Program-made: the position numbers and the translations under genes
Shown: piece after piece, positions 1 through 22,635 of the stretch
How positions within the stretch are numbered: the stretch's first letter is position 1
Layout: each line of letters opens with the position of its first letter
Source: Marinilactibacillus piezotolerans
Lineage (GTDB): Bacteria > Bacillota > Bacilli > Lactobacillales > Carnobacteriaceae_A
Reading direction: 5' to 3'
NCBI RefSeq assembly: GCF_900114235.1
Contig: NZ_FOSJ01000026.1
Location: forward strand, 1 to 24,000
DNA: 24,000 nucleotides
Notes under the pieces: generated by a model
Database searches by the model: none
What the model saw: only the letters and a program-made list of their open reading frames with translations
Told to the model about the DNA's origin: nothing

Positions 1-15
1 CCTGAATAATTCATA
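1..15. repeat. IS left terminal inverted repeat (IRL)
   Basis: CCTGAATAATTCATA is a perfect reverse-complement match to 1665-1679. Confidence 0.85.
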
Positions 16-157
16 CTTTTTAATTGAAACCGTCTGAAACTGCCTAACGGCAGTCTGATAATTACTTTTTTATTTTCACCCCTTAAGTGATGAAAAAAGA
101 ACCCCATTCTGCTATGGTAAAGGTGACGAAACCAACCATAAGAAAGGAGTTCTTCTC

Positions 158-1477
158 ATGACTAGATTACACGAAAATCAAGTTAAATTCAATTCAAATA
201 TCACTATTTCACATACTGGTGGTCGTCTATCAAGTGATTCGGGGTTAGTCCTGGTTAAAGAATTGATGAATACCTTCGGCTTTTCACAATTAGCTAAACA
301 ATGGCTCCATATCACAGATCATCGGGCTTATTTTACCCATCATAACTTAGCGATATTGGAACAGCTTATTATGCAGTTAATTGCTGGTTACTCGGCAGAC
401 TCATCAGCTAATCTATTAAGACAGGATCCAGTCTTTCAAGCTGTACTCGGTAAAAAGCAGTTGGCCTCACAATCGTCAATCTCACGGTTTCTGGATCGTT
501 TCACCGAGGAGAACATCGATCAACTCCAAGCATTAAATCAGTCGCTGATTAATAAAGCGCGTTTGATTCGCAATGATACCGAGTTAATCATTGATGTCGA
601 TTCCACACATTCGGATACCTTTGGACGCCAAGAACAAACAGATTATAATGCCCATTATCAAACCTACGGCTATCACCCATTAGTTGCCTTTGACGGACTG
701 ACCGGAGATTTCTTAAAAGCTGAACTGCGTTCAGGCAATCAGTACACATCTAAAGGGGTAAAAGCTTTTATCGCCCCGCTGTTATACCAATACAAGAGCA
801 CGTTACCTCATACCGAGATATTGGTTCGGGGGGACAGCGGCTTCGCCACACCAGAGGTGTATGAGTCTTGTGAAGCAACTGAAAGCCAGTACGTTATCCG
901 ATTAAAGAGCAATCGGAGGTTAAGTCAGTTAGCTGAACACTCTGTTCTTTACGGGGACAATCAAGAATGGGAAGAGCGAGAAGTGCAGTATTTTTCACTA
1001 CCTTATCAAGCACAATCCTGGTCGAAACCCCGTCGTGTCTGTATACGTTCCGTCCGTGAAGGAGGAGAATTGCTTTTTCATCATGCGTTTATTGTGACTA
1101 ATCTATCCGACAACGTCTCGCCTGAAGTCATATTTTCTCTTTACGGCAAGCGTGGAACAATGGAAAATTTCATCAAAGAAGCGAAAGGTGGCTTTTACTT
1201 CGATAAAACAGATAGCCCGCGTTTCTTAGAAAATCATGTCAGAATGATGATCAGTGTCCTTGCATACAACCTCGTCAATTTTTTAAAAACCATTGGTTTT
1301 GATAAAGTGAACCAGGGCATGACGATCCATTCCATCCGGCTGACATTGCTTAAAGTAGCCGGTAAACTTGTTCAAACTGGGAGACAGGTCTATCTCAAAC
1401 TGTCAAGCTATCATGTGTATCAAACTGAATTTTATAAGGTTTTTGAACGCCTGCGGCGATCCAAACAATGGATTTAG
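158..1477 (+). CDS. IS1380-family DDE transposase
   Basis: 439 aa. SD AAGGAG lies about 8 nt upstream of the ATG. Acidic-triad contexts are present: IIDVDSTHSD, VRGDSGFATPE and MENFIKEAKGGF. Size and N-terminal sequence (SHTGGRLSSDSGL) are typical of IS1380/ISSpn5-like transposases. Confidence 0.9.
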   Translation: MTRLHENQVKFNSNITISHTGGRLSSDSGLVLVKELMNTFGFSQLAKQWLHITDHRAYFTHHNLAILEQLIMQLIAGYSADSSANLLRQDPVFQAVLGKKQLASQSSISRFLDRFTEENIDQLQALNQSLINKARLIRNDTELIIDVDSTHSDTFGRQEQTDYNAHYQTYGYHPLVAFDGLTGDFLKAELRSGNQYTSKGVKAFIAPLLYQYKSTLPHTEILVRGDSGFATPEVYESCEATESQYVIRLKSNRRLSQLAEHSVLYGDNQEWEEREVQYFSLPYQAQSWSKPRRVCIRSVREGGELLFHHAFIVTNLSDNVSPEVIFSLYGKRGTMENFIKEAKGGFYFDKTDSPRFLENHVRMMISVLAYNLVNFLKTIGFDKVNQGMTIHSIRLTLLKVAGKLVQTGRQVYLKLSSYHVYQTEFYKVFERLRRSKQWI

Positions 1478-1664
1478 ACTAGTTATCACACAAATTTTTA
1501 AACCGATTTTTTTCAAGGGATTCGTCTGCCCTTAAATAGACAAATTTTTTTATTATGACCTTCTTCCGTAGGCATCCTGTTCGAAAACACATTATTTTGG
1601 AAGGAAGTATCTGCCTAATTTAAAAATGGGCAATTTCTTCAAAAAAAAAGCTTGAATTTAGATC

Positions 1665-1679
1665 TATGAATTATTCAGG
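1665..1679. repeat. IS right terminal inverted repeat (IRR)
   Basis: TATGAATTATTCAGG is the reverse complement of 1-15. It contains the ATG (1666-1668) that the ORF track uses as the start of the downstream ORF. Confidence 0.85.
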
Positions 1680-2904
1680 TAAAAATATAAATTTAAAAAA
1701 ATTATCTAAATCAGAAAAGCTAATATATCATGCAAGTCAATTTTATAGTAATAAGCTACTAGGATACATTGAAGGTGATAATGATCCTGAAAGTCAATAC
1801 AAAAAGTTATCTTGTTTATTGGATCTGTTTTTAAGTAATTTTAAATTAATGTATATTGAAACAGATGAAATTAATGAAGCATTTGTTATTTTCGAAACAT
1901 TGAATGCTAGAGGTAAAGATTTAGAAACTTCTGATCTTTTAAAAAATCATGTTTTTAGATCTTCAAATAACAAAATCAAGATTATAAAAGTTCAATGGAA
2001 CCAAGTTATAGAGAATTTAGGAAATGTTGATCCAACAAGATTTATCAGACATTATTGGAATTCGCAACATAAATTTGTTAGAGAAAAAGATTTATATAAA
2101 GGTATTCGAAAAGCTATTAATACGCCTAAAAAAGTTGAAGATTTGATGGAAGATTTAGTTGGACTTTCTGATTTATATACATCCTTAAGCTATCCTGAAA
2201 ATTTTGTTTATTTTGAAAATTCTACTTTAATTGAACGTACAAAAGAGATCAGTAATTTGGGAGCAAGTTCTTATTTCCCAATTATGCTAGCACTAGAGAA
2301 CGAAAAGTATGACGAAATTGACATAGATAAAATAATGGAAAGTATTGAATGCTTAATAGTTAGAAACTTTGTAGTAGCAGGAAAAACAGCTAATAAATTC
2401 GAAGTTGAATTTGCAAAAATTGCATATCAAATTACGCAACATCAATTTGATGAAATAGATGAAATTTTAAGTGCTATAAAAAATTTGACTATTAATGATG
2501 ATGAATTCAGTAATGACTTTAAAATTTTCACTACTAAAAAAACCAATACTATTAGATATATATTAAGAAAGGTTCATAATAATTCTAATACTGAAACTAG
2601 AATAATCAATGATAACAATACAATACACATAGAACATATTATGCCTAAAAAAACGCAACATTGGGATATATCTAAAGACTTGCATGATGAATATCTGTGG
2701 AAATTAGGAAATCTGACATTGTTAGGACATGAATACAATTGAAGCGCCACCAATAGTAACTTTGAATTAAAAAAAGATGTTTACAGACAGTCTGATATAC
2801 CTATGACTCAAAACTTGATTGAATACAAAGATTGGACTATTAAAGACATAGAAGAGAGACAAGAATCTTTTATTGATGTTGCACTACAAATTTGGAAAAA
2901 ATAA
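1680..2904 (+). pseudogene. GmrSD-like DUF262/DUF1524 type IV restriction-family gene, 5'-truncated by the IS and carrying an in-frame TGA at 2740-2742
   Basis: The translation contains the DUF262 C-terminal motif FVIFETLNARGKDLETSDLLKN and the DUF1524 His-Me finger motif HIEHIMPK...LGNLTLL. The N-terminal DUF262 core (DGQQR region) is missing. The first five codons (MNYSG) derive from the IS IRR. After TGA the same frame continues for 53 codons (SATNSNFELKKDVY...QIWKK) to TAA at 2902-2904. Confidence 0.8.
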
Positions 2905-3049
2905 ACATTCATTCTTTGTTATATCACTTAAGATAATATAAGAAGATCATTTTAAAGCATGTAGTTTTCATAAATAGCACTAAGATGAGTGAAATTTGTA
3001 TGTGATGTGTTAACATCTGTAAATCTATTTATAAGAGGAGCAAATACTT

Positions 3050-3565
3050 ATGAATTTTAAATCTGTCGATTCACTGCAACCTATAGTAAATGTAATTAAC
3101 GAAACTAACCAGGCTGTTCAAGACAAATCAAGAACGATGATAGACAGCCCATTATCTGACATGGTATCCGGAGCTTTAGGAGCGGGTATTGGGGGAGCAG
3201 TTTCTTTTGCCGGCTTATACGGGCTAGGTACTGTTGGATTGAGTGCAGTTGGTATCACATCTGGATTAGCTACGGCAGGAAGTATCGTTGGTGGAGGAAT
3301 GGTATCCGGAGTTTTTGTATTGGCGGCTCCAGTTGCAATTATTGCTGGAGGTGGGATTGCATTAAATGCTAAACGAAAAAAAAATAAATTAAAAAGAGAA
3401 AAGGAACGGCTTTACCAGGAAGCTTTAAAAAAACATAATGCAGTGATTGAAGCTTTAAAGGAAGAAGTAAATGCAACAAATGATAGGATGGAATACTTGA
3501 ATGGATTAAACATTTTATTACAACAAGCGATTAAGGAACTAAGGTCAGATTTAGAGGGAGTCTAA
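3050..3565 (+). CDS. Small membrane protein with a glycine-zipper TM region and a C-terminal coiled coil; no recognised family
   Basis: 171 aa. SD AGAGGAG lies 9 nt upstream. Residues ~38-105 are Gly/Ala-rich hydrophobic (GALGAGIGGAVSFAGLYGLGTVGLSAVGITSGLATAGSIVGGGMVSGVFVLAAPVAIIAGGGIAL) with repeated GxxxG. A basic stop-transfer stretch follows (KRKKNKLKREKER), then a heptad-like helical tail. Confidence 0.7.
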   Translation: MNFKSVDSLQPIVNVINETNQAVQDKSRTMIDSPLSDMVSGALGAGIGGAVSFAGLYGLGTVGLSAVGITSGLATAGSIVGGGMVSGVFVLAAPVAIIAGGGIALNAKRKKNKLKREKERLYQEALKKHNAVIEALKEEVNATNDRMEYLNGLNILLQQAIKELRSDLEGV

Positions 3566-4927
3566 ATGAAAAAGTATCAATATTCCGAATCAGAGAAAGA
3601 ACTAAATAAAGTTTTGCATTATCATGATAATGTTTTAAACAGCATTCCTTCTCTTAATCCAAATAAAATAAAAATGGGTCAAAACATCGCTTCAAGTGAA
3701 GAGCTGCTAAAGAAATTAAGTTTTAGTCAGCAAGTTTGTGAGATGGGCAGTAATTTATCTCATACAGAAAAGAAAATAAAAATCTCAAATCTTCGATCTT
3801 GGGACGAGATATTAAAAGATGCTCATAACTTGGTACCTGATGAAGTAGATTTACAGTCATTGTTTATAGAAGAAGAATTACAATCCAACGAACGGTACAT
3901 AAATCAATTAAGAAATGACTTCAATTCTCTTAATAAGTTGGATGAGACTGACTATTTAATTTGTGTTGCTGCAGGTATTCTAGCCGCATCAGTTGATATC
4001 TTTTTAGATGGGATTCCTAAAAAAACAAAAGAAGGTGTCACAGCTGGACCGTTGTCTGATTACATTCGAAATAAATTTGATGAAGCGATTCCTCAAGAAA
4101 AAATAAAAGAGTTGGAAAGAAAGTTTAAAGTTCCTTATGATCTATCAACGAATTATAAATTAGATGAATATGTTGATGGATTGAGTAGTTGGTTTCACAG
4201 GTATCATTCGCTTGGTCATGATCCAATATTAGGATTTGTTTTTGGAGTGTTTGATGTGATGACGGGCAGATTTAGTGCGATAGACAAAAAAGGAAAAGTA
4301 ATTTCACAAATCTTATCTGATGTACCCGAAGGTATTGATATATTTCAAGCTATTGGTAAAGTTTTTGGTCATATGAAATCTGACGTCAATACTTCCATGG
4401 GTTTACCAGCTCCTTTGATGACTTTATTTAATATGTTTCAATTTGGAAAAATAGAAAAAGAGAAGTTAACTATTGCAGAAGTTGCAAGAGGAATGTATGC
4501 ACAAGGTTACGATTTTAAACATTTCTGTTCGATGTCTATATCCACTATGATTATTGAAGTGGTTGTCAGATTGTCTTATTGTATAAAGAGATTAAACGAA
4601 GGTTACAGTTTAAAAGACTCTATTCCAGTAAATGGATTTGGTAGGAAATTGCCTAAATTGCAGACAATGCTTTTTATAGCCCATTCCATAAATACAGCTT
4701 CTAATGCCGGAAAAATTTACTTTACAAAGAATCCATTAGCTATTAATTATACAGAATGGCTAGCCTTTACTAAATACTCTGTTTCGCAATTAAAATGGAC
4801 ACTTCGTGATAAACCGGTACTTAGAGATCAGTATGTAGAAAGTAAACTTCTAGAGGAATGGAATGATCTTCAGTCGGTAATTAATGATATGTGGACAGCA
4901 ACAGAAGAAGATTATATAGTTCTTTAA
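3566..4927 (+). CDS. Hypothetical 453-aa protein with hydrophobic segments; no recognisable family
   Basis: The ATG abuts the upstream stop (TAAATG). SD GAGGGAG sits inside the end of the upstream gene, indicating translational coupling. It has a hydrophobic segment (LICVAAGILAASVDIFL) and several amphipathic or hydrophobic stretches. Possible His-containing motifs are HRYHSLGHDP and GHMKSD. Confidence 0.65.
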   Translation: MKKYQYSESEKELNKVLHYHDNVLNSIPSLNPNKIKMGQNIASSEELLKKLSFSQQVCEMGSNLSHTEKKIKISNLRSWDEILKDAHNLVPDEVDLQSLFIEEELQSNERYINQLRNDFNSLNKLDETDYLICVAAGILAASVDIFLDGIPKKTKEGVTAGPLSDYIRNKFDEAIPQEKIKELERKFKVPYDLSTNYKLDEYVDGLSSWFHRYHSLGHDPILGFVFGVFDVMTGRFSAIDKKGKVISQILSDVPEGIDIFQAIGKVFGHMKSDVNTSMGLPAPLMTLFNMFQFGKIEKEKLTIAEVARGMYAQGYDFKHFCSMSISTMIIEVVVRLSYCIKRLNEGYSLKDSIPVNGFGRKLPKLQTMLFIAHSINTASNAGKIYFTKNPLAINYTEWLAFTKYSVSQLKWTLRDKPVLRDQYVESKLLEEWNDLQSVINDMWTATEEDYIVL

Positions 4928-6027
4928 TCGTAAAACGTTTAGTGGGACTACTAAGTATAACAATCAATCAGTTTGCTGTAGACAGTATGATTGAGCTGAA
5001 GAAGTCATATGAGTTACTTAAAAATCGTTTAGGAAGAATTCCTTATCTAAGAGATTTTGAAGAACAACAGACTTTAGATCCAGTATTGATTGCAGGGAAG
5101 AAGCATAATTATTATGGATTTTTAGATGCAATAAAAGAGAGCGAAAGAGAACTCAGTAAAGAAACATCAGCTTATTTAACCTTTGCTACAAGAGAGCTAT
5201 TAACGGGTATAAGAAGACATGAATTAATTTTGATGCTTAAACTGATTAATGAGCCAAATAAATTGTTTACGGTAGCTGAATTAAAACAATTCTTTTATGA
5301 TCGCGGATTATTAAATGACGAAGAAACGATTAATTCAGTCATACGTACGCTTGATTTGAGCTTCTTTACTGGTCAAGAAGCTAAAACATATAAAGGTTCT
5401 GAGATAATCGAGTTTCAAGGTGAAGAAATAGGTTTAACAATTGAATTCAAAGAGGCACTCAAGAATGAATACTTTGTCAAATTAATTAAAGATACGCTAA
5501 TAACGAGTAAGTTAAAGTCCAAACTATTTGATCAAACGACTCCATTGACCAGATTTCAGAAGTATCGTCGTAAAGATGTTATCAGGTTACTAAAGTGGGA
5601 ACAGCAGATGATCAATCAGAATATTGGTGGTTACACAGATTTCAAAGACCAGTTTGTTATTTTCGTTACGCTGGAAAAAGGGGACGACTTTGCAGGTGCT
5701 CAAATGGCGTATGAAGATGAGCTGCTAGATGCTTCCACCATGAAGTGGTTCACAAAAGCACCACGAACCCTAAACTCCCCAGAAGTTATCAAGCTGAAAA
5801 ATTCAGACGACTATGATATTCGTGTGTTCGTTAAAAAGTCAGATGATGAAGGATCGGATTTCTACTATTTAGGAGAAGTAAAACCGAAGCTGGATACCAT
5901 CACGCAATTAAAGAAACCAGACAGTAATGGTCACATGAAAAAAGTTGTCGAGATGCAGCTGGAATTTTTGCAGCCAATTGAAACTAAATTGTATCGCTAT
6001 TTGCAGTTTAATATCAACAATGTATAA
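4891..6027 (+). CDS. DUF3427-type protein lacking the usual N-terminal helicase/nuclease modules (start uncertain: GTG 4891, GTG 4942 or ATG 4987)
   Basis: The C-terminal ~250 aa (…RFQKYRRKDVIRLL…FVIFVTLEKGDDFAGAQMAYEDELLDASTMKWFTKAPRTLNSPEV…DFYYLGEV) resembles, from memory, the DUF3427 domain found at the C terminus of ResIII/DEAD helicase defence-island proteins. None of the candidate starts has a convincing SD. The frame opens at 4888 and overlaps the upstream gene in the -1 frame. Confidence 0.6.
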   Translation: MDSNRRRLYSSLIVKRLVGLLSITINQFAVDSMIELKKSYELLKNRLGRIPYLRDFEEQQTLDPVLIAGKKHNYYGFLDAIKESERELSKETSAYLTFATRELLTGIRRHELILMLKLINEPNKLFTVAELKQFFYDRGLLNDEETINSVIRTLDLSFFTGQEAKTYKGSEIIEFQGEEIGLTIEFKEALKNEYFVKLIKDTLITSKLKSKLFDQTTPLTRFQKYRRKDVIRLLKWEQQMINQNIGGYTDFKDQFVIFVTLEKGDDFAGAQMAYEDELLDASTMKWFTKAPRTLNSPEVIKLKNSDDYDIRVFVKKSDDEGSDFYYLGEVKPKLDTITQLKKPDSNGHMKKVVEMQLEFLQPIETKLYRYLQFNINNV

Positions 6028-6070
6028 GTAAAGTAAGTATAGGGTATAGGCAAAAGGAGATAAAACTATA

Positions 6071-6985
6071 TTGGTAAATGACCTTGTAAAACAGGAACTA
6101 GATGGAGTGAAATTTAAGCTAAGAGCCAAAGAAGATTTTTCATTTTTAAGTCAATTTGGGAAAGTTTTTTGCGTTTTTGACCAGAATGATTCTGGGAATA
6201 TAAGTTTTGGAGTAATCAATAATAAACTAGAAAAGTTCTTTATAAAAGTAGCTGGAGCTCAAACGCTTGAGTTTGCTGGTAATACTAATGAAGCAGTTGA
6301 AGCATTGAAAAATACTATAGAGATTTATTCAGATTTAAAACACCCTAGTTTAATTAATATGATTTCATCTGGTGATTATAACAATCTATTTTATATTGTA
6401 TTTCGTTGGGCAGAAGGGGATTGTTTATATGATCACTGGAACTTTGATTACTATCATAATCATCCGGAAGTAGAGTCGCCTAGAAAAAGATTTGCTAAAA
6501 TATCGAATGAAGATAAGCTTGAAACAGCGAAACAGATTCTTGAATTCATGGCATTTGTTGAATCAAAAGGATATGTAGCTGTTGATTTTTATGATGGAAG
6601 TTTGATGTATGACTTCAAAAGCAATCAACTAACCATCTGCGATATTGATCTGTTTAAAAAAAGTCCAGTACTAAATGACATAGGTTCAGACTACTGGGGA
6701 ACAAAAAGAATGAAAGCGCCAGAGGAATATCATCTGAATGCAATAATAGATTCAAGAACAAATGTGTTTACTATAGGTGCATTATTTTTCAATCTATTTG
6801 GAAATTACTCAGGTGAACTATTGCGACAAATCTATACGGAAAATAAATTTATACCTTTAGAAGAAAAAAATTGGGCATTATCTTCAGACTTGTATAATGT
6901 AGCATTGGATGCAGTAAAAGAAGAGCCTGAAAAACGATATGCTACTGTTAAAGAATTTAAAGATGAATGGATTAATAAAGCATAA
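6071..6985 (+). CDS. Stand-alone eukaryotic-like Ser/Thr protein kinase-fold protein (Stk2-like candidate)
   Basis: 304 aa with a TTG start and SD AAAGGAG about 12 nt upstream. Kinase subdomain-like motifs are present: FFIKVAG (VAIK Lys), LKHPSLINM, catalytic-loop-like YVAVDFYDGSLMYD, DFG-like ICDIDLF, APE-like MKAPEE, TNVFTIGALFFNLF (subdomain IX) and EKRYATVKEF (subdomain XI). There are no PASTA, TM or other domains. Confidence 0.7.
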   Translation: MVNDLVKQELDGVKFKLRAKEDFSFLSQFGKVFCVFDQNDSGNISFGVINNKLEKFFIKVAGAQTLEFAGNTNEAVEALKNTIEIYSDLKHPSLINMISSGDYNNLFYIVFRWAEGDCLYDHWNFDYYHNHPEVESPRKRFAKISNEDKLETAKQILEFMAFVESKGYVAVDFYDGSLMYDFKSNQLTICDIDLFKKSPVLNDIGSDYWGTKRMKAPEEYHLNAIIDSRTNVFTIGALFFNLFGNYSGELLRQIYTENKFIPLEEKNWALSSDLYNVALDAVKEEPEKRYATVKEFKDEWINKA

Positions 6986-7003
6986 TTTTATAATTAATGA
7001 AAT

Positions 7004-7043
7004 ACCCAATTTACTATTAAAGTAGGTTGGGTGTTTTTATTTT
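7004..7043 (+). terminator. Rho-independent terminator closing the 3050-6985 block
   Basis: The stem is ACCCAATTTACT (7004-7015) paired with AGTAGGTTGGGT (7021-7032), with G-U pairs and a 5-nt loop, followed by GTTTTTATTTT. Confidence 0.7.
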
Positions 7044-7169
7044 CATTGTAGAATCTTAAGATAAATATTTCACTTCAAATTATTTGGGTGCAGATCATGT
7101 CCCCCGTTATCCTTTCGATTACGATATACTATGGTTACAATCAATCTTGGCCAGGGGAGATTAAATAAA

Positions 7170-7964
7170 ATGGAAAATAACAGATTGAATTTGATTTACA
7201 AGTTGAATCATATTGCCAATGAGTTAGAAGTCGGAACTGTAGAATATGAATTAGCAAGATTTTTCTTAGAGAACTTTAAAAGCGTTAACAAATGGAATAT
7301 CTATCAAATTGCAGAAGACAATAATGTATCAAGGGCATCAGTTCGCAGATTCGCTAAGCAACTAGGCTATGCAAACTTTTCAGATATGAAAGCTCATGTT
7401 CAGGAGTTTGATGACGGGATCAATGATTTTCAACAATTCTATGGGGTAGAGGGCTTCTTAGATGTATTAGTCTCAAACATTCAGGCTTTGATGAAAGAGC
7501 TGAGTATCCGAATGAATACGCAGGAAGTGGATCGATTAAATAAACTCATCAATGAAAATAAAGAAGTCATTATTTTCACTTCCAGTAATATCGCAGGTTT
7601 AGTGAAGACATTTCAGCAGCGAATGATTATTTTTGGTAAGAGAATTACTTTGTTGACTGAGCTGGATGATTTGAAAAAATTTAAAAATGTGAAAGAAAAA
7701 CCACTGATTATTGTCGTTTCAATTTCTGGACTTTTGCTTTCAACGATCCTATCCGAACTCAGAGAGATCAATGCTACAAAAATATTATTTACAAACAATC
7801 GTAACCCGATTTACAATCAGGATTTCGACAAACTTTATCATTTGAGTTCGCAGCATCATGAAAGTGATATAAACGATTTGCTTTATTACACCTATGGAAT
7901 CAATTTTGTATTAGATCTGTTATTCAATGGATATTTAATGAAGTATAAAAGGGAAGGAATTTAA
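7170..7964 (+). CDS. MurR/RpiR-family transcriptional regulator (HTH_6 + SIS domain)
   Basis: The N-terminal HTH VSRASVRRFAKQLGYANFSDMK is typical of RpiR. The C-terminal region is SIS-like (EVIIFTSSNIAG…LIIVVSISG). I prefer ATG 7170 (SD GGGGAG 11 nt upstream) to the track start at 7131. Confidence 0.8.
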   Translation: MENNRLNLIYKLNHIANELEVGTVEYELARFFLENFKSVNKWNIYQIAEDNNVSRASVRRFAKQLGYANFSDMKAHVQEFDDGINDFQQFYGVEGFLDVLVSNIQALMKELSIRMNTQEVDRLNKLINENKEVIIFTSSNIAGLVKTFQQRMIIFGKRITLLTELDDLKKFKNVKEKPLIIVVSISGLLLSTILSELREINATKILFTNNRNPIYNQDFDKLYHLSSQHHESDINDLLYYTYGINFVLDLLFNGYLMKYKREGI

Positions 7965-19832: not shown

Positions 19833-20031
19833 GCGAGTATATAACATTAAGGGCTTTTTGAATTTGAGTTTTAACGAATAAAAGGTTACTGCAGTAATTA
19901 GTCAGTATGCTATAAATCTTGTTCCTTAGAGATTTAAGTATAAAATTGAATCTGAAAAGGATAATTCAGTTTTCTATTCGACTCATTTGCTTTAAACTGT
20001 AAATAATCAATTTATGAATGGAGTGAAGTGA

Positions 20032-20478
20032 ATGGGACAAATTGTGTATACTAATTATTGGCTGAACCGACTTAGTGATGTAAAGAAAGAGCATGGTAGC
20101 TATGTAACTGAAGAAGAAGCAATAGATGGGATTAAAGCTTGGTGGGATCTGCATAGTGAACATTATCCTCATGCTCAGTTCAAGCGGACACAATCCGGAG
20201 CTCTAGAAGTCATCTATGATGATGATAATCACTACTATCGTATTGAAAAAAGAACAATAGAAGGTGCATTGCCTTCTAAGAATTATCGATTAAGAAAAGC
20301 TGGAGAAATTGAATCTCTGCGCTTTAAACATAGCCTTCACGAAGAAGCTTATCTATTTGATGAATTAGCAGAGCCATTACGAGATCGACTAGTAATTGCA
20401 ATGGCAGATTCCAAAAAGTTACAAGATTATATTTACGATGAAGATGGTTGTCCAATAAAAAAAATAAATGAAAAATAA
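20032..20478 (+). CDS. Hypothetical protein (148 aa)
   Basis: The ORF has SD GGAGTGA upstream and a terminator downstream. No recognisable motif. Confidence 0.55.
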   Translation: MGQIVYTNYWLNRLSDVKKEHGSYVTEEEAIDGIKAWWDLHSEHYPHAQFKRTQSGALEVIYDDDNHYYRIEKRTIEGALPSKNYRLRKAGEIESLRFKHSLHEEAYLFDELAEPLRDRLVIAMADSKKLQDYIYDEDGCPIKKINEK

Positions 20479-20492
20479 TAATTGATTCATCA

Positions 20493-20535
20493 GGTCTCCG
20501 AGGGTATTAAAAAGCATCTTCGGAGGCCCTTTTTA
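20493..20535 (+). terminator. Rho-independent terminator
   Basis: The stem is GGTCTCCGAGG paired with CTTCGGAGGCC (two G-U pairs), followed by CTTTTT. Confidence 0.7.
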
Positions 20536-20749
20536 ATAAATATTTGAAATTCAGAAATAAAAATTCTACTGTAATCAGCTTATAAAATTTGTTTCAATAA
20601 TTAACCTGAGGAGATAAACTAATAGAGACTCGGAGACGTTACATAATATTGGTTGGATAATAACTTTGCCTATGCAAATTCTTTCGCAAAGATCTTCAAA
20701 TAAAGTATACTAATTTATAACAGACAATTTATAAGTGGGAGAATAATGG

Positions 20750-21739
20750 ATGTTTACAGAAAAACGATTGACAGAAGCCTATAATAATGCCAAAGAAATG
20801 TTTTATGATGATTATTCTCGTATTGTGTTTATGAGTGATGCACACCGTGGAGATGGTAGTGTATCAGATGAATTTCTACGTAGTCGCAATCTTTTTGTGC
20901 ACGCTTTAAAAGAATATTATGAAAGTGAGTATACTTTTGTAGAAGTAGGCGATGGAGAAGAACTTTTAGAATATTCAGAGTTTGAGCATATAAAAAATGC
21001 CCACACAGATGTATATGGATTGATTAAAAAGTTTTATGATAAAGACCGTTACATTCGCATTTTTGGAAATCATGATATCTTTTTAAAAAAGCAGAAATAT
21101 GTTGAAAAGAACTATTACATTAATTATGACGAATACAGTGAAGAATATTTTGATTTCTTGAAAGGGATTGATCCGTTAGAATCCCTGGTTCTAAAGCATC
21201 GTCAGACAAGTCAGGAAATATTTGTGTTGCACGGACATCAAGGGGATGCACCGAATGATCAGTTCTGGTTTTTCACTATGCTTTCTTTGAAATACTTCTG
21301 GCGATTCTTACATCGATTTGGAATTCGCAATCCTGCCAGTCCGATTAAAAATGTATCGAAAAGACATAAAATTGAACGTAATTATAGTAAATGGATCAAG
21401 AAAAATAGGAGAATGCTGATATGCGGTCACACACATCGCTTCAAGTTTCCTAAAAATCGTGCAGTTCCTTACTTTAATACTGGGTGCGGGATTTATCCTT
21501 CTAGTATTACTGCATTAGAACTTTCTGAAGGAATGATTCGTCTTGTTCGATGGAAAGAAAAAGTGAATGATGATGGATTGCTGTATATCAAAAGGGAAAC
21601 CATGAGAGGTCCGGAACCTGTTGAACTATTTGATATCCGCAAGCCAAAAGAAGTTGTGGAATATTTAGCTAAACTGAAAATTCAACGAACCAAAAAATCA
21701 AGAGAGGAAAGAGCTGCTTTCAGAGAAGAGAAGATGTAA
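20750..21739 (+). CDS. Metallophosphoesterase (calcineurin-like, LpxH-type family)
   Basis: 329 aa. Phosphoesterase motifs appear in order: SDAHRGDG, VGDGEE, GNHD, HGHQGD and CGHTH. The C-terminal tail is basic. Confidence 0.8.
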   Translation: MFTEKRLTEAYNNAKEMFYDDYSRIVFMSDAHRGDGSVSDEFLRSRNLFVHALKEYYESEYTFVEVGDGEELLEYSEFEHIKNAHTDVYGLIKKFYDKDRYIRIFGNHDIFLKKQKYVEKNYYINYDEYSEEYFDFLKGIDPLESLVLKHRQTSQEIFVLHGHQGDAPNDQFWFFTMLSLKYFWRFLHRFGIRNPASPIKNVSKRHKIERNYSKWIKKNRRMLICGHTHRFKFPKNRAVPYFNTGCGIYPSSITALELSEGMIRLVRWKEKVNDDGLLYIKRETMRGPEPVELFDIRKPKEVVEYLAKLKIQRTKKSREERAAFREEKM

Positions 21740-21753
21740 AAATAAAGAGCAGT

Positions 21754-21797
21754 AAAATAGCCATTCGTCTTTATAAATAGAGAATGGCTATTTTTGT
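21754..21797. terminator. Bidirectional terminator between the convergent genes
   Basis: AAAATAGCCATTC (21754-21766) pairs perfectly with GAATGGCTATTTT (21782-21794). The A-run upstream and T-run downstream serve both strands. Confidence 0.75.
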
Positions 21798-21801
21798 ATG
21801 A

Positions 21802-22635
21802 TTAATTTTTTAAAGTAACAGTTATCAGTTCAGGTCTGTTATTGATTCGAACAGGAATGATACTGTTTCCTAAACCACGACTAACGATCATATGAGTCTG
21901 ATTTTCAGTATAGATACCAGCAGTATATTCAGGGAATATTCCTTGATCTGGAGCAATCAGTCCGCCGATGAAAGGAATTCTGAATTGTCCTCCATGGGCG
22001 TGTCCGCTGAATACTAACTGGAAATCCTGAGCTGCATAGGTTTCATATAATTCAGGACGATGAGAAAGTAATATTTTGAAACCTTCAAAACGACTAGATA
22101 GTGTTTTTAAGGTTTCCTCAGGACTGGAATTTTGGAATGTCGGATCTTGCAGTCCAGCCAACATTATCTGAGAAGAACCTTTACTTATAAAGATAGACTG
22201 GTTGTCTAGAATGGTTATTTCTCTTTCAACTAACTCTGCTTTTAATTGAACATACTCCTCACTCCAAGCTTCATGATTTCCCGTTACAAAGTATAAAGGA
22301 GCAATCTCCTTAGACTGATCAATAAATTCTAGAGCAGTAGGCAGATCTGTTTTTGATGAATCAATTAAATCACCAGTAAGAACAATAATATCCGGCTCTT
22401 CTTCTTGTAGTTTCTCAATAAGTTGGCTGCCCCAGTCTTTGTTATGTAAATCTGAGACTTGAGCGATCTTATATCCGTTAAAGCTTTCTGGCAGTTCCTC
22501 ATCTTGTACAGTGAAATGAGTGGTTTGAATTGAATAGTTTCCCCAGAGCATCCAAAATATTAGTATAATGGTTATAGTTAAGGTAATAATCAGATATTTA
22601 TGTTTTTTAGTAAAATTGATAGTTTGCTGTTTCAA
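21802..22635 (-). CDS. Membrane-anchored metallophosphoesterase (YkuE/YkoQ-like)
   Basis: The motifs are VSDLHN, TGDLID, GNHE, SHRP and GHAHGGQ, with an N-terminal TM helix (YLIITLTITIILIFWMLW). I prefer TTG 22635, preceded by AGGAG with 7-nt spacing, to the track start at 22665, which has no SD. Confidence 0.8.
   Translation of the reverse strand: MKQQTINFTKKHKYLIITLTITIILIFWMLWGNYSIQTTHFTVQDEELPESFNGYKIAQVSDLHNKDWGSQLIEKLQEEEPDIIVLTGDLIDSSKTDLPTALEFIDQSKEIAPLYFVTGNHEAWSEEYVQLKAELVEREITILDNQSIFISKGSSQIMLAGLQDPTFQNSSPEETLKTLSSRFEGFKILLSHRPELYETYAAQDFQLVFSGHAHGGQFRIPFIGGLIAPDQGIFPEYTAGIYTENQTHMIVSRGLGNSIIPVRINNRPELITVTLKN

Follow-up and report, generated by a model that had tools for sequence, protein, structure and literature searches.

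What is the function of two tightly coupled genes, one for a small glycine-rich protein (gene 1) and the other for a larger partner (gene 2), that lie near the start of contig NZ_FOSJ01000026.1 of Marinilactibacillus piezotolerans? The first 24,000 nucleotides of this contig (assembly GCF_900114235.1), hereafter the window, had been described from the sequence letters and a list of open reading frames as containing a glycine-zipper membrane protein and an unknown partner, possibly a membrane-disrupting effector with its regulator (the original prediction). Homology searches took the partner out of the unknown and showed it to be a full-length homologue of BnzB from the Bunzi defence system. 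Bunzi (BnzA/BnzB) is an anti-phage system reported by Millman et al. 2022, with a proposed role in 'membrane surveillance', in which BnzA was described as a TerB-domain protein with predicted transmembrane (TM) helices and a lipid-interacting domain. The verified system, given in the supplement of that work, is that of Ligilactobacillus animalis DSM 20602, with a BnzA of 546 amino acids and a BnzB of 487. The pair in the window is an undescribed variant of Bunzi without TerB, and its homology to Bunzi is very probable from the alignments below.

Gene 2 matched the PADLOC BnzB profile (PDLC03834) with an E value of 1.8e-66 (223 bits), its residues 5-435 aligning with profile positions 29-500 of 504, and was 27% identical to the verified L. 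animalis BnzB over 372 amino acids in BLASTP (E 3e-26), with GH..SD and GLPAP motifs common to both proteins. Gene 1 matched the PADLOC BnzA profile (E 2e-8) through its residues 43-150, at positions 311-419 of 544 only. Two hhalign runs of the gene 1 family against canonical BnzA aligned residues 32-150 with positions 307-424 (78%, E 1.8e-5) and residues 46-151 with positions 315-418 (81%, E 1.2e-5). The matched region of BnzA comprises its Gly-rich membrane segment, the basic patch and the first coil. At four other loci, all four gene 2 homologues matched PADLOC BnzB strongly, and three of the four small proteins matched PADLOC BnzA, in each case within positions 301-414 of the profile, while the one from Veillonella gave no match. 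By these alignments, gene 1 corresponds to the membrane and coil module in the middle of BnzA, and gene 2 is homologous to BnzB along its full length.

Gene 1 has 36 residues ahead of its hydrophobic block compared with about 310 in BnzA, and nothing aligned with positions 1-310 of the BnzA profile. It is without these N-terminal residues, which carry the TerB annotation, and also without about 125 residues of the BnzA C-terminus. No TerB domain was detected with Pfam in gene 1, gene 2 or the other scanned proteins of the window; hmmscan missed TerB in the verified BnzA too, and the absence of the TerB-type half from gene 1 was judged from its length and alignment coverage.

The two genes are translationally coupled. 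The ATG of gene 2 lies in the frame of gene 1, 0 nucleotides (nt) after its TAA, and the Shine-Dalgarno (SD) sequence of gene 2 lies inside gene 1 (Table 1), in agreement with the earlier reading of the junction. Coupling is conserved elsewhere, with TAAATG or TAGATG junctions, a 4-nt ATGA overlap or a 4-nt gap at six other homologous loci.

The gene 1 product was 100% identical to a hypothetical protein of M. piezotolerans and had more than 2500 homologous 90% clusters, the best 120 of which were all 169-208 amino acids long and 62-100% identical to it; across genera the identity was 62-88%, with a conserved N-terminus and a ribosome-binding site of its own. Gene 2 had more than 2300 homologous 90% clusters, and 855 clusters at 50% identity (E<=1e-3). 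Pairs of the same kind (165-193 plus 452-462 amino acids) were found in M. psychrotolerans, the Bacillus cereus group, Oceanobacillus, a Clostridiales metagenome-assembled genome and Veillonella, as well as on a Limosilactobacillus plasmid and in two phage or prophage records. The short pair is also part of the backbone of plasmids of incompatibility group HI2 (IncHI2), where it was present in 474-479 PLSDB records, including the prototype R478, mostly at 99% identity or more, and it was detected in 16 of 5426 complete E. coli genomes. Long canonical BnzA was encoded on 13 PLSDB plasmids only (12 from Lactococcus and one from Vibrio), none of them enterobacterial. The short form looks much more abundant than long BnzA, since an identical search returned 2520 clusters of the former and 42 of the latter, a comparison skewed by the long form being the more divergent. 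Judged from its spread and conservation, the short form is a lineage and not a local truncation.

Nucleotide comparison (blastn) with the Oceanobacillus and B. cereus loci gave homology over positions 3033-4928 and 3046-4928, respectively, from the ribosome-binding site of gene 1 to the stop codon of gene 2; with M. psychrotolerans it extended over 3036-6013 (91%), taking in the downstream gene 3. Gene order was the same in all homologous loci examined, and the flanking genes differed between genera, being rich in defence and mobile genes (HsdR, McrBC, GmrSD, integrases, HipA, prophages). Because the flanks differ in each genus and homology ends at the gene 2 stop, neither gene 3 nor gene 4 is a conserved partner of the pair, and both were rejected as such, gene 3 being common only with M. 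psychrotolerans and gene 4 with no examined locus. The suspicion that the pair might function independently of these neighbours was thereby strengthened, the shared cassette stopping exactly at the gene 2 stop while the neighbours vary. As far as these comparisons reach, the pair is a self-contained, horizontally mobile two-gene cassette.

Some of the homologous loci had particular features. On a Limosilactobacillus mucosae plasmid (L014), a 76-amino-acid reading frame (5784-6014) separates the short BnzA-like gene (5104-5655) from BnzB (6001-7362), the start of which it overlaps; it resembles the part of another, distinct BnzA-like gene that encodes the basic patch and coil, and the arrangement probably marks where two cassettes recombined. 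On R478 (NC_005211.1) the pair, at 20001-21891 of the extracted locus L019 (89694-91584 of the plasmid), lies about 10 kb downstream of terZABCDE (5274-9824 of L019), which includes a stand-alone TerB of 151 amino acids, so that TerB could be supplied in trans on this plasmid. In Veillonella (L011) two TerC genes (3709-5165) are located about 2.3 kb upstream of the pair, possibly by coincidence. No ter genes were found near the pair in the window.

Gene 1 had been predicted to combine a membrane segment of the glycine-zipper kind with a basic anchor and a coiled coil, a description with which its composition, its hydrophobic windows and the C-terminal helices of the AlphaFold2 model agree, the segment looking like a hairpin. 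Residues 37-106 contain a single charged residue (D37), 19 Gly (27%) and 12 Ala, with four strict GxxxG and about 20 small-xxx-small motifs. Membrane propensity was scored with Kyte-Doolittle windows and crude Hessa free-energy (dG) sums, taking the helices of phosphotransferase system (PTS) EIIC proteins in the window as controls. The best hydrophobic windows of gene 1 (dG +3.3 for residues 51-69 and +1.6 for residues 87-105) were comparable to those of the verified BnzA (+2.1 and +2.3) and within the range of the control helices. The Gly-rich block was the most conserved part of gene 1, with a column entropy of 0.3-0.4 bits among 41 homologues, and is therefore not a chance low-complexity run; it was near-identical between Firmicutes and IncHI2 plasmids. 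In the N-terminal region F3, L9, N17, E18 and A22 were invariant among homologues. AlphaFold2 placed helices at residues 6-24, 36-46, 53-57, 104-138 and 144-170, the last two with a predicted local distance difference test (pLDDT) score of about 70, and modelled residues 46-106 (3185-3367) at pLDDT 30-47 with near-absent regular structure, helix 53-57 being the only one there. That the best-conserved block is also the worst modelled suggests a structure formed only in an oligomer, in a complex or in the membrane.

Searches of Pfam and NCBIfam returned nothing significant for either gene, and PHROGs nothing for gene 2. The glycine-zipper, holin and bacteriocin-type families of Pfam gave no above-threshold match for gene 1, the best Pfam match being Phage_holin_3_6 (E 0.021, 15.3 bits, cutoff 28.4). 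In PHROGs, which has no curated cut-off, gene 1 matched a 'membrane protein' family (E 8e-4) and an Rz-like spanin (E 5e-3), both weakly and over compositionally similar segments. With scores below threshold in both databases, identification of gene 1 as a holin or spanin was rejected. Weak PADLOC matches to the C-terminal region of LeoBC, the dynamin-like protein of Eleos, were also noted for gene 1 (E 0.036) and for its IncHI2 homologue (L015, 5259-5756; E 0.0011); this similarity is probably driven by composition, a common membrane and coil module being the alternative.

Gene 2 has variable ends (residues 1-100 and 421-453 by column entropy) on either side of a conserved core, and the histidine motifs that had merely looked conserved proved truly so across 96 diverse relatives, with the exception of H214. 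D192, H211, H218, H269, D273 and P283 were invariant in this set, and D129, D144, P151, R212, D219, P220, D230, S272, M310 and Y311 were conserved in at least 92% of it (R212, D219, P220 and S272 in at least 96% each). The AlphaFold2 model, built on a 42-sequence alignment, was almost wholly helical with two small hairpins (pLDDT 76, predicted template modelling score 0.58). The segment LICVAAGILAASVDIFL, which the original prediction had regarded as a convincing TM segment, was found within helix 127-145, and that assignment is doubtful, as the scores are weak and the near-invariant D129 and D144 lie inside it. The helix had a 19-residue Kyte-Doolittle mean of 1.99 and a crude dG of +5.2, at the weak end of the PTS EIIC controls, with the highest pLDDT in gene 2; the only gene 2 window above a Kyte-Doolittle value of 1.6 was residues 128-151, with the conserved D129, D144 and D148 in or beside it. 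Because of the conserved Asp residues and the dG of +5.2, this is probably a buried core helix rather than a TM helix. The figure legend of Millman et al. 2022 mentions TM helices for BnzA alone.

Searches for relatives of gene 2 of known structure were negative: the 42-sequence alignment gave no match at E<=1 in a sequence-profile search of the PDB, and Foldseek searches with the model returned best E values of 0.3 (PDB) and 0.14 (BFVD), with template modelling scores of at most 0.16. The HRx5HD and GHxxSD motifs may resemble those of PAP2, HD-domain or zinc phospholipase C proteins. Assignment of BnzB to PAP2, to the HD domain or to zinc-dependent phospholipase C was rejected, there being no profile or fold match and the order of the motifs being unfit for PAP2.

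That the two proteins are partners, as their arrangement had suggested, is supported by natural fusion proteins, which point to a physical partnership. Among the 150 best family representatives three were fusions (P0267, P0271 and P0359), all ending in the BnzB part. P0267 (619 amino acids) and P0271 (622 amino acids) begin with a gene-1-like part followed by BnzB; the gene-1-like part of P0267 matched gene 1 over residues 48-170 (BLASTP, E 5e-14), and the N-termini of both, judged by eye, resemble the N-terminal helix of gene 1. In these two proteins the Gly-rich segment has turned charged and no TM-like window is left (best crude dG at least +9). P0359 (691 amino acids) has a hydrophobic Gly-rich segment and a coil ahead of BnzB and keeps its TM-like windows; BLASTP found no significant similarity between it and gene 1. 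The membrane anchor thus seems dispensable in some lineages.

Taken together, we favour, at slightly better than even, the reading that the pair is a compact Bunzi variant acting at the membrane with the BnzB core as its active part; an antiviral role as such is somewhat more probable. Gene 1 would insert as a Gly-rich hairpin, probably oligomeric, with both ends in the cytoplasm, and its cytoplasmic N-terminal helix and C-terminal helical hairpin would tether BnzB to the cytoplasmic face of the membrane. The C-terminus of gene 1, and hence BnzB, is placed in the cytoplasm because a basic patch follows the last hydrophobic window (positive-inside rule); this placement fits the fusions, and an even number of spans agrees with a TerB-type N-terminus that is cytoplasmic in canonical BnzA. 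The fast-evolving termini of BnzB may sense infection. Its invariant His/Asp core (D192, H211, H218, D230, H269 and D273) would be the active centre and may bind metal, and BnzB would block phage multiplication from its place at the membrane, the infected cell most likely being sacrificed. TerB would be an accessory that the system can do without, not part of its core. The BnzB core is preferred as the active part because the His/Asp set is invariant and because the core is kept where the membrane segment has been lost, and the specific division of labour, with gene 1 as tether and BnzB as active core, is put forward only tentatively.

Several observations weigh against this reading. BLASTP of gene 1 against the verified BnzA was not significant, so that homology had to be detected with profiles, and the link between the two proteins, built on a compositionally biased segment, has moderate support; the part of BnzA behind the 'membrane surveillance' proposal of its authors is missing from gene 1. 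The Gly-rich block has no confident AlphaFold2 helices (pLDDT 30-47), and the TM hairpin remains predicted. No sequence or structural relative of BnzB that would support catalysis was found in Pfam, NCBIfam, the PDB or BFVD. One canonical Bunzi alone is marked as verified in Millman et al. 2022, in whose table an E. coli homologue is marked 'x', which we read as not verified, and a lactococcal Bunzi did not protect against the phages with which it was challenged. Next to the pair, GmrSD is present only as a pseudogene, and the islet is partly decayed.

The roles could also be reversed, in line with the original prediction: the glycine-zipper protein would oligomerize into a depolarizing pore, with BnzB in the cytoplasm as its sensor or gatekeeper. 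No other part of either protein is as conserved as the Gly-rich block, which is what tightly packed helices would require; the BnzB termini are variable in a sensor-like manner, gene 1 has weak sub-threshold similarity to holin and spanin profiles, and membrane effectors are common in abortive-infection systems, according to a review. However, P0267 and P0271 keep the gene 1 helices and the BnzB core without a TM-like window, so a pore cannot be the universal effector, and the invariant His/Asp set of BnzB looks more like an active site than like a sensor surface. The lack of confident helices in the Gly-rich block also speaks against a pore, as does the absence of Bunzi deletions from the list of untransformable, possibly toxic deletions in Millman et al. 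2022. We consider this reversal rather unlikely.

More improbable is a toxin-antitoxin-like or addiction module, or another function in the maintenance or competition of mobile elements, with no anti-phage role. Its tight two-gene coupling, its occurrence in prophages and its place in the conserved IncHI2 backbone (474 records, mostly at least 99% identical) would suit such a module, but many chromosomal copies adjoin restriction or other defence genes and not plasmid maintenance genes, the pair is homologous to a system with measured anti-phage activity, and the same list of possibly toxic, untransformable deletions holds no Bunzi deletion. That gene 1 is what remains of a degenerated full-length BnzA, and the locus an inactive relic in a decaying island with an insertion-cut, stop-containing GmrSD/HEC-06 gene upstream and a gene 3 matching only the C-terminal third of its profile, is very improbable, as the 169-208-residue form is the norm, with the same ends in more than 2500 clusters, 62-88% identity across genera, a conserved N-terminus and its own ribosome-binding site, and as no BnzA-like coding remnant lies in the 145 nt between gene 1 and the end of the GmrSD frame.

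The features of the pair and of its surroundings are collected in Table 1. Positions 1-7040 are a small, partly decayed defence islet, and the remaining window is housekeeping. The left end of the IS4 element coincides with the edge of the window. The GmrSD pseudogene matches its profile from about position 149, its reading frame has its ATG inside the inverted repeat of the insertion sequence (IS) and otherwise runs to 2904, and its GC content is about 27% compared with about 33% around it. Gene 3 has no helicase or nuclease part and does not follow the pair in genera other than Marinilactibacillus. Comparison with a 343-amino-acid protein of M. psychrotolerans indicates that its start is most likely the ATG at 4987 and not the GTG at 4891, which would overlap gene 2. 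A promoter-like site (TGGACA-17-TATAGT, 10/12) lies at 4892-4920, within the 3' end of gene 2 and upstream of the probable start of gene 3, in a region where such sites are no more numerous than in shuffled sequence. The only strong terminator-like hairpin of the region (6999-7037, 17-bp stem) follows gene 4, and the stretch from gene 2 to this hairpin showed no terminator-like site.

Table 1 Features of the Bunzi-like pair and its neighbourhood in the window.
Feature	Position	Strand	Remarks
IS4-family (DDE_Tnp_1_4) element	1-1679		28-nt imperfect inverted repeats at 1-28 and 1652-1679; transposase reading frame 158-1477
GmrSD/HEC-06-type type IV restriction pseudogene	1666-2904		5' end cut by the IS; in-frame TGA 2740-2742
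Gene 1 ribosome-binding site AAGAGGAG	3033-3040	+	9 nt ahead of ATG; sequence reading
Gene 1	3050-3565	+	171 amino acids; short, BnzA-like; reading-frame list
Gene 1 N-terminal helix, residues 6-24	3065-3121	+	AlphaFold2 helix; conserved; kept in natural BnzA-BnzB fusions
Gene 1 Gly-rich hydrophobic block, residues 37-106	3158-3367	+	putative glycine-zipper membrane hairpin
Gene 1 C-terminal helical hairpin or coiled coil, residues 104-170	3359-3559	+	AlphaFold2; aligns to BnzA ~377-418
Gene 1 basic patch KRKKNKLKREKER, residues 108-120	3371-3409	+	directly after the hydrophobic block
Coupling junction	3554-3568	+	SD GAGGGAG 3554-3560 within gene 1; TAA 3563-3565; gene 2 ATG 3566-3568
Gene 2	3566-4927	+	453 amino acids; BnzB homologue; reading-frame list
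Gene 2 variable N-terminal helical region, residues 1-100	3566-3865	+	entropy 1.4-2.6 bits; AlphaFold2 helices 8-26 and 30-62
Gene 2 conserved core, residues 120-420	3923-4825	+	mostly alpha-helical; entropy mostly 0.6-1.2 bits
Gene 2 hydrophobic helix, residues 127-145, containing LICVAAGILAASV	3944-4000	+	AlphaFold2 pLDDT 95
Motif HRYHSLGHDP (H211, R212, H218, D219, P220)	4196-4225	+	96-100% conserved in 96 diverse relatives
Motif HMKSDVNTSMGLPAP (H269, S272, D273, G279, P281, P283)	4370-4414	+	conserved; verified BnzB has GHIMSD...GLPAP
Gene 3, stand-alone DUF3427 protein	4987-6027 (reading frame callable from GTG 4891)		matches 623-951 of a 953-residue type IV restriction enzyme profile
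Gene 4, Ser/Thr kinase-like	6071-7037 (window span)		weak matches to defence kinases PD-T4-6, mad6 and MkoA

Our literature searches turned up neither a mechanistic study of Bunzi nor a description of a TerB-less subtype. The genome set of Millman et al. 2022 included M. piezotolerans DSM 16108, yet their Bunzi table has no entry for Marinilactibacillus. A survey of Salmonella with PADLOC and DefenseFinder counted 82 plasmid-borne 'Bunzi', often of IncHI1 (50%), with a further 35% in one other incompatibility group. Since no long BnzA was found on enterobacterial plasmids in PLSDB, the annotation tools probably already label the short IncHI pair Bunzi.

In the papers that we found, Bunzi is discussed only through its TerB annotation, and the more abundant relative described here does without that domain, narrowing the core to a membrane hairpin and coil protein of about 170 residues plus BnzB with its invariant His/Asp set. 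A bolder proposal, which we regard as doubtful, is that the TerB-less pair is both the minimal functional core and the commonest form of Bunzi, with BnzB a His/Asp enzyme of new fold, possibly metal-dependent, on a glycine-zipper hairpin, and TerB dispensable. If true, it would overturn the view of Bunzi as TerB-based 'membrane surveillance' and would offer a 1.9-kb handle on the mechanism, including the copy on plasmid R478. As IncHI2 resistance plasmids of Enterobacter, Salmonella and Klebsiella carry the pair in their backbone, phage therapy directed at these hosts would be affected if the pair contributed to phage resistance. In the ordinary case, the locus is no more than a defence cassette of the Bunzi kind, within a small defence islet that has partly decayed.

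Among known systems, the pair is closest in layout to the Bunzi of L. animalis, where the gene for the membrane protein likewise directly precedes its partner on the same strand, but it differs in the length of that protein (171 compared with 546 amino acids); the gap between the genes is 0 nt here and 9-15 nt in canonical plasmid loci. Shango and Dionysus are usually grouped with Bunzi under 'membrane surveillance', but unlike the TerB systems Shango (SngA) and Dionysus (DinB) and the ter cluster, the pair has no TerB, helicase or ATPase partner. Its likeness to Eleos is confined to a weak match at about positions 410-562 of 601 in LeoBC, and gene 1 is without the GTPase domain. With AbiZ, PifA, RexB, the TM effectors of cyclic-oligonucleotide-based anti-phage signalling systems (CBASS) and glycine-zipper pore formers, gene 1 shares by analogy a small hydrophobic, Gly-rich, oligomerization-prone segment and a basic-patch anchor; it differs from these membrane-acting abortive-infection effectors in having no sequence membership among them and in having some fused relatives without the segment.

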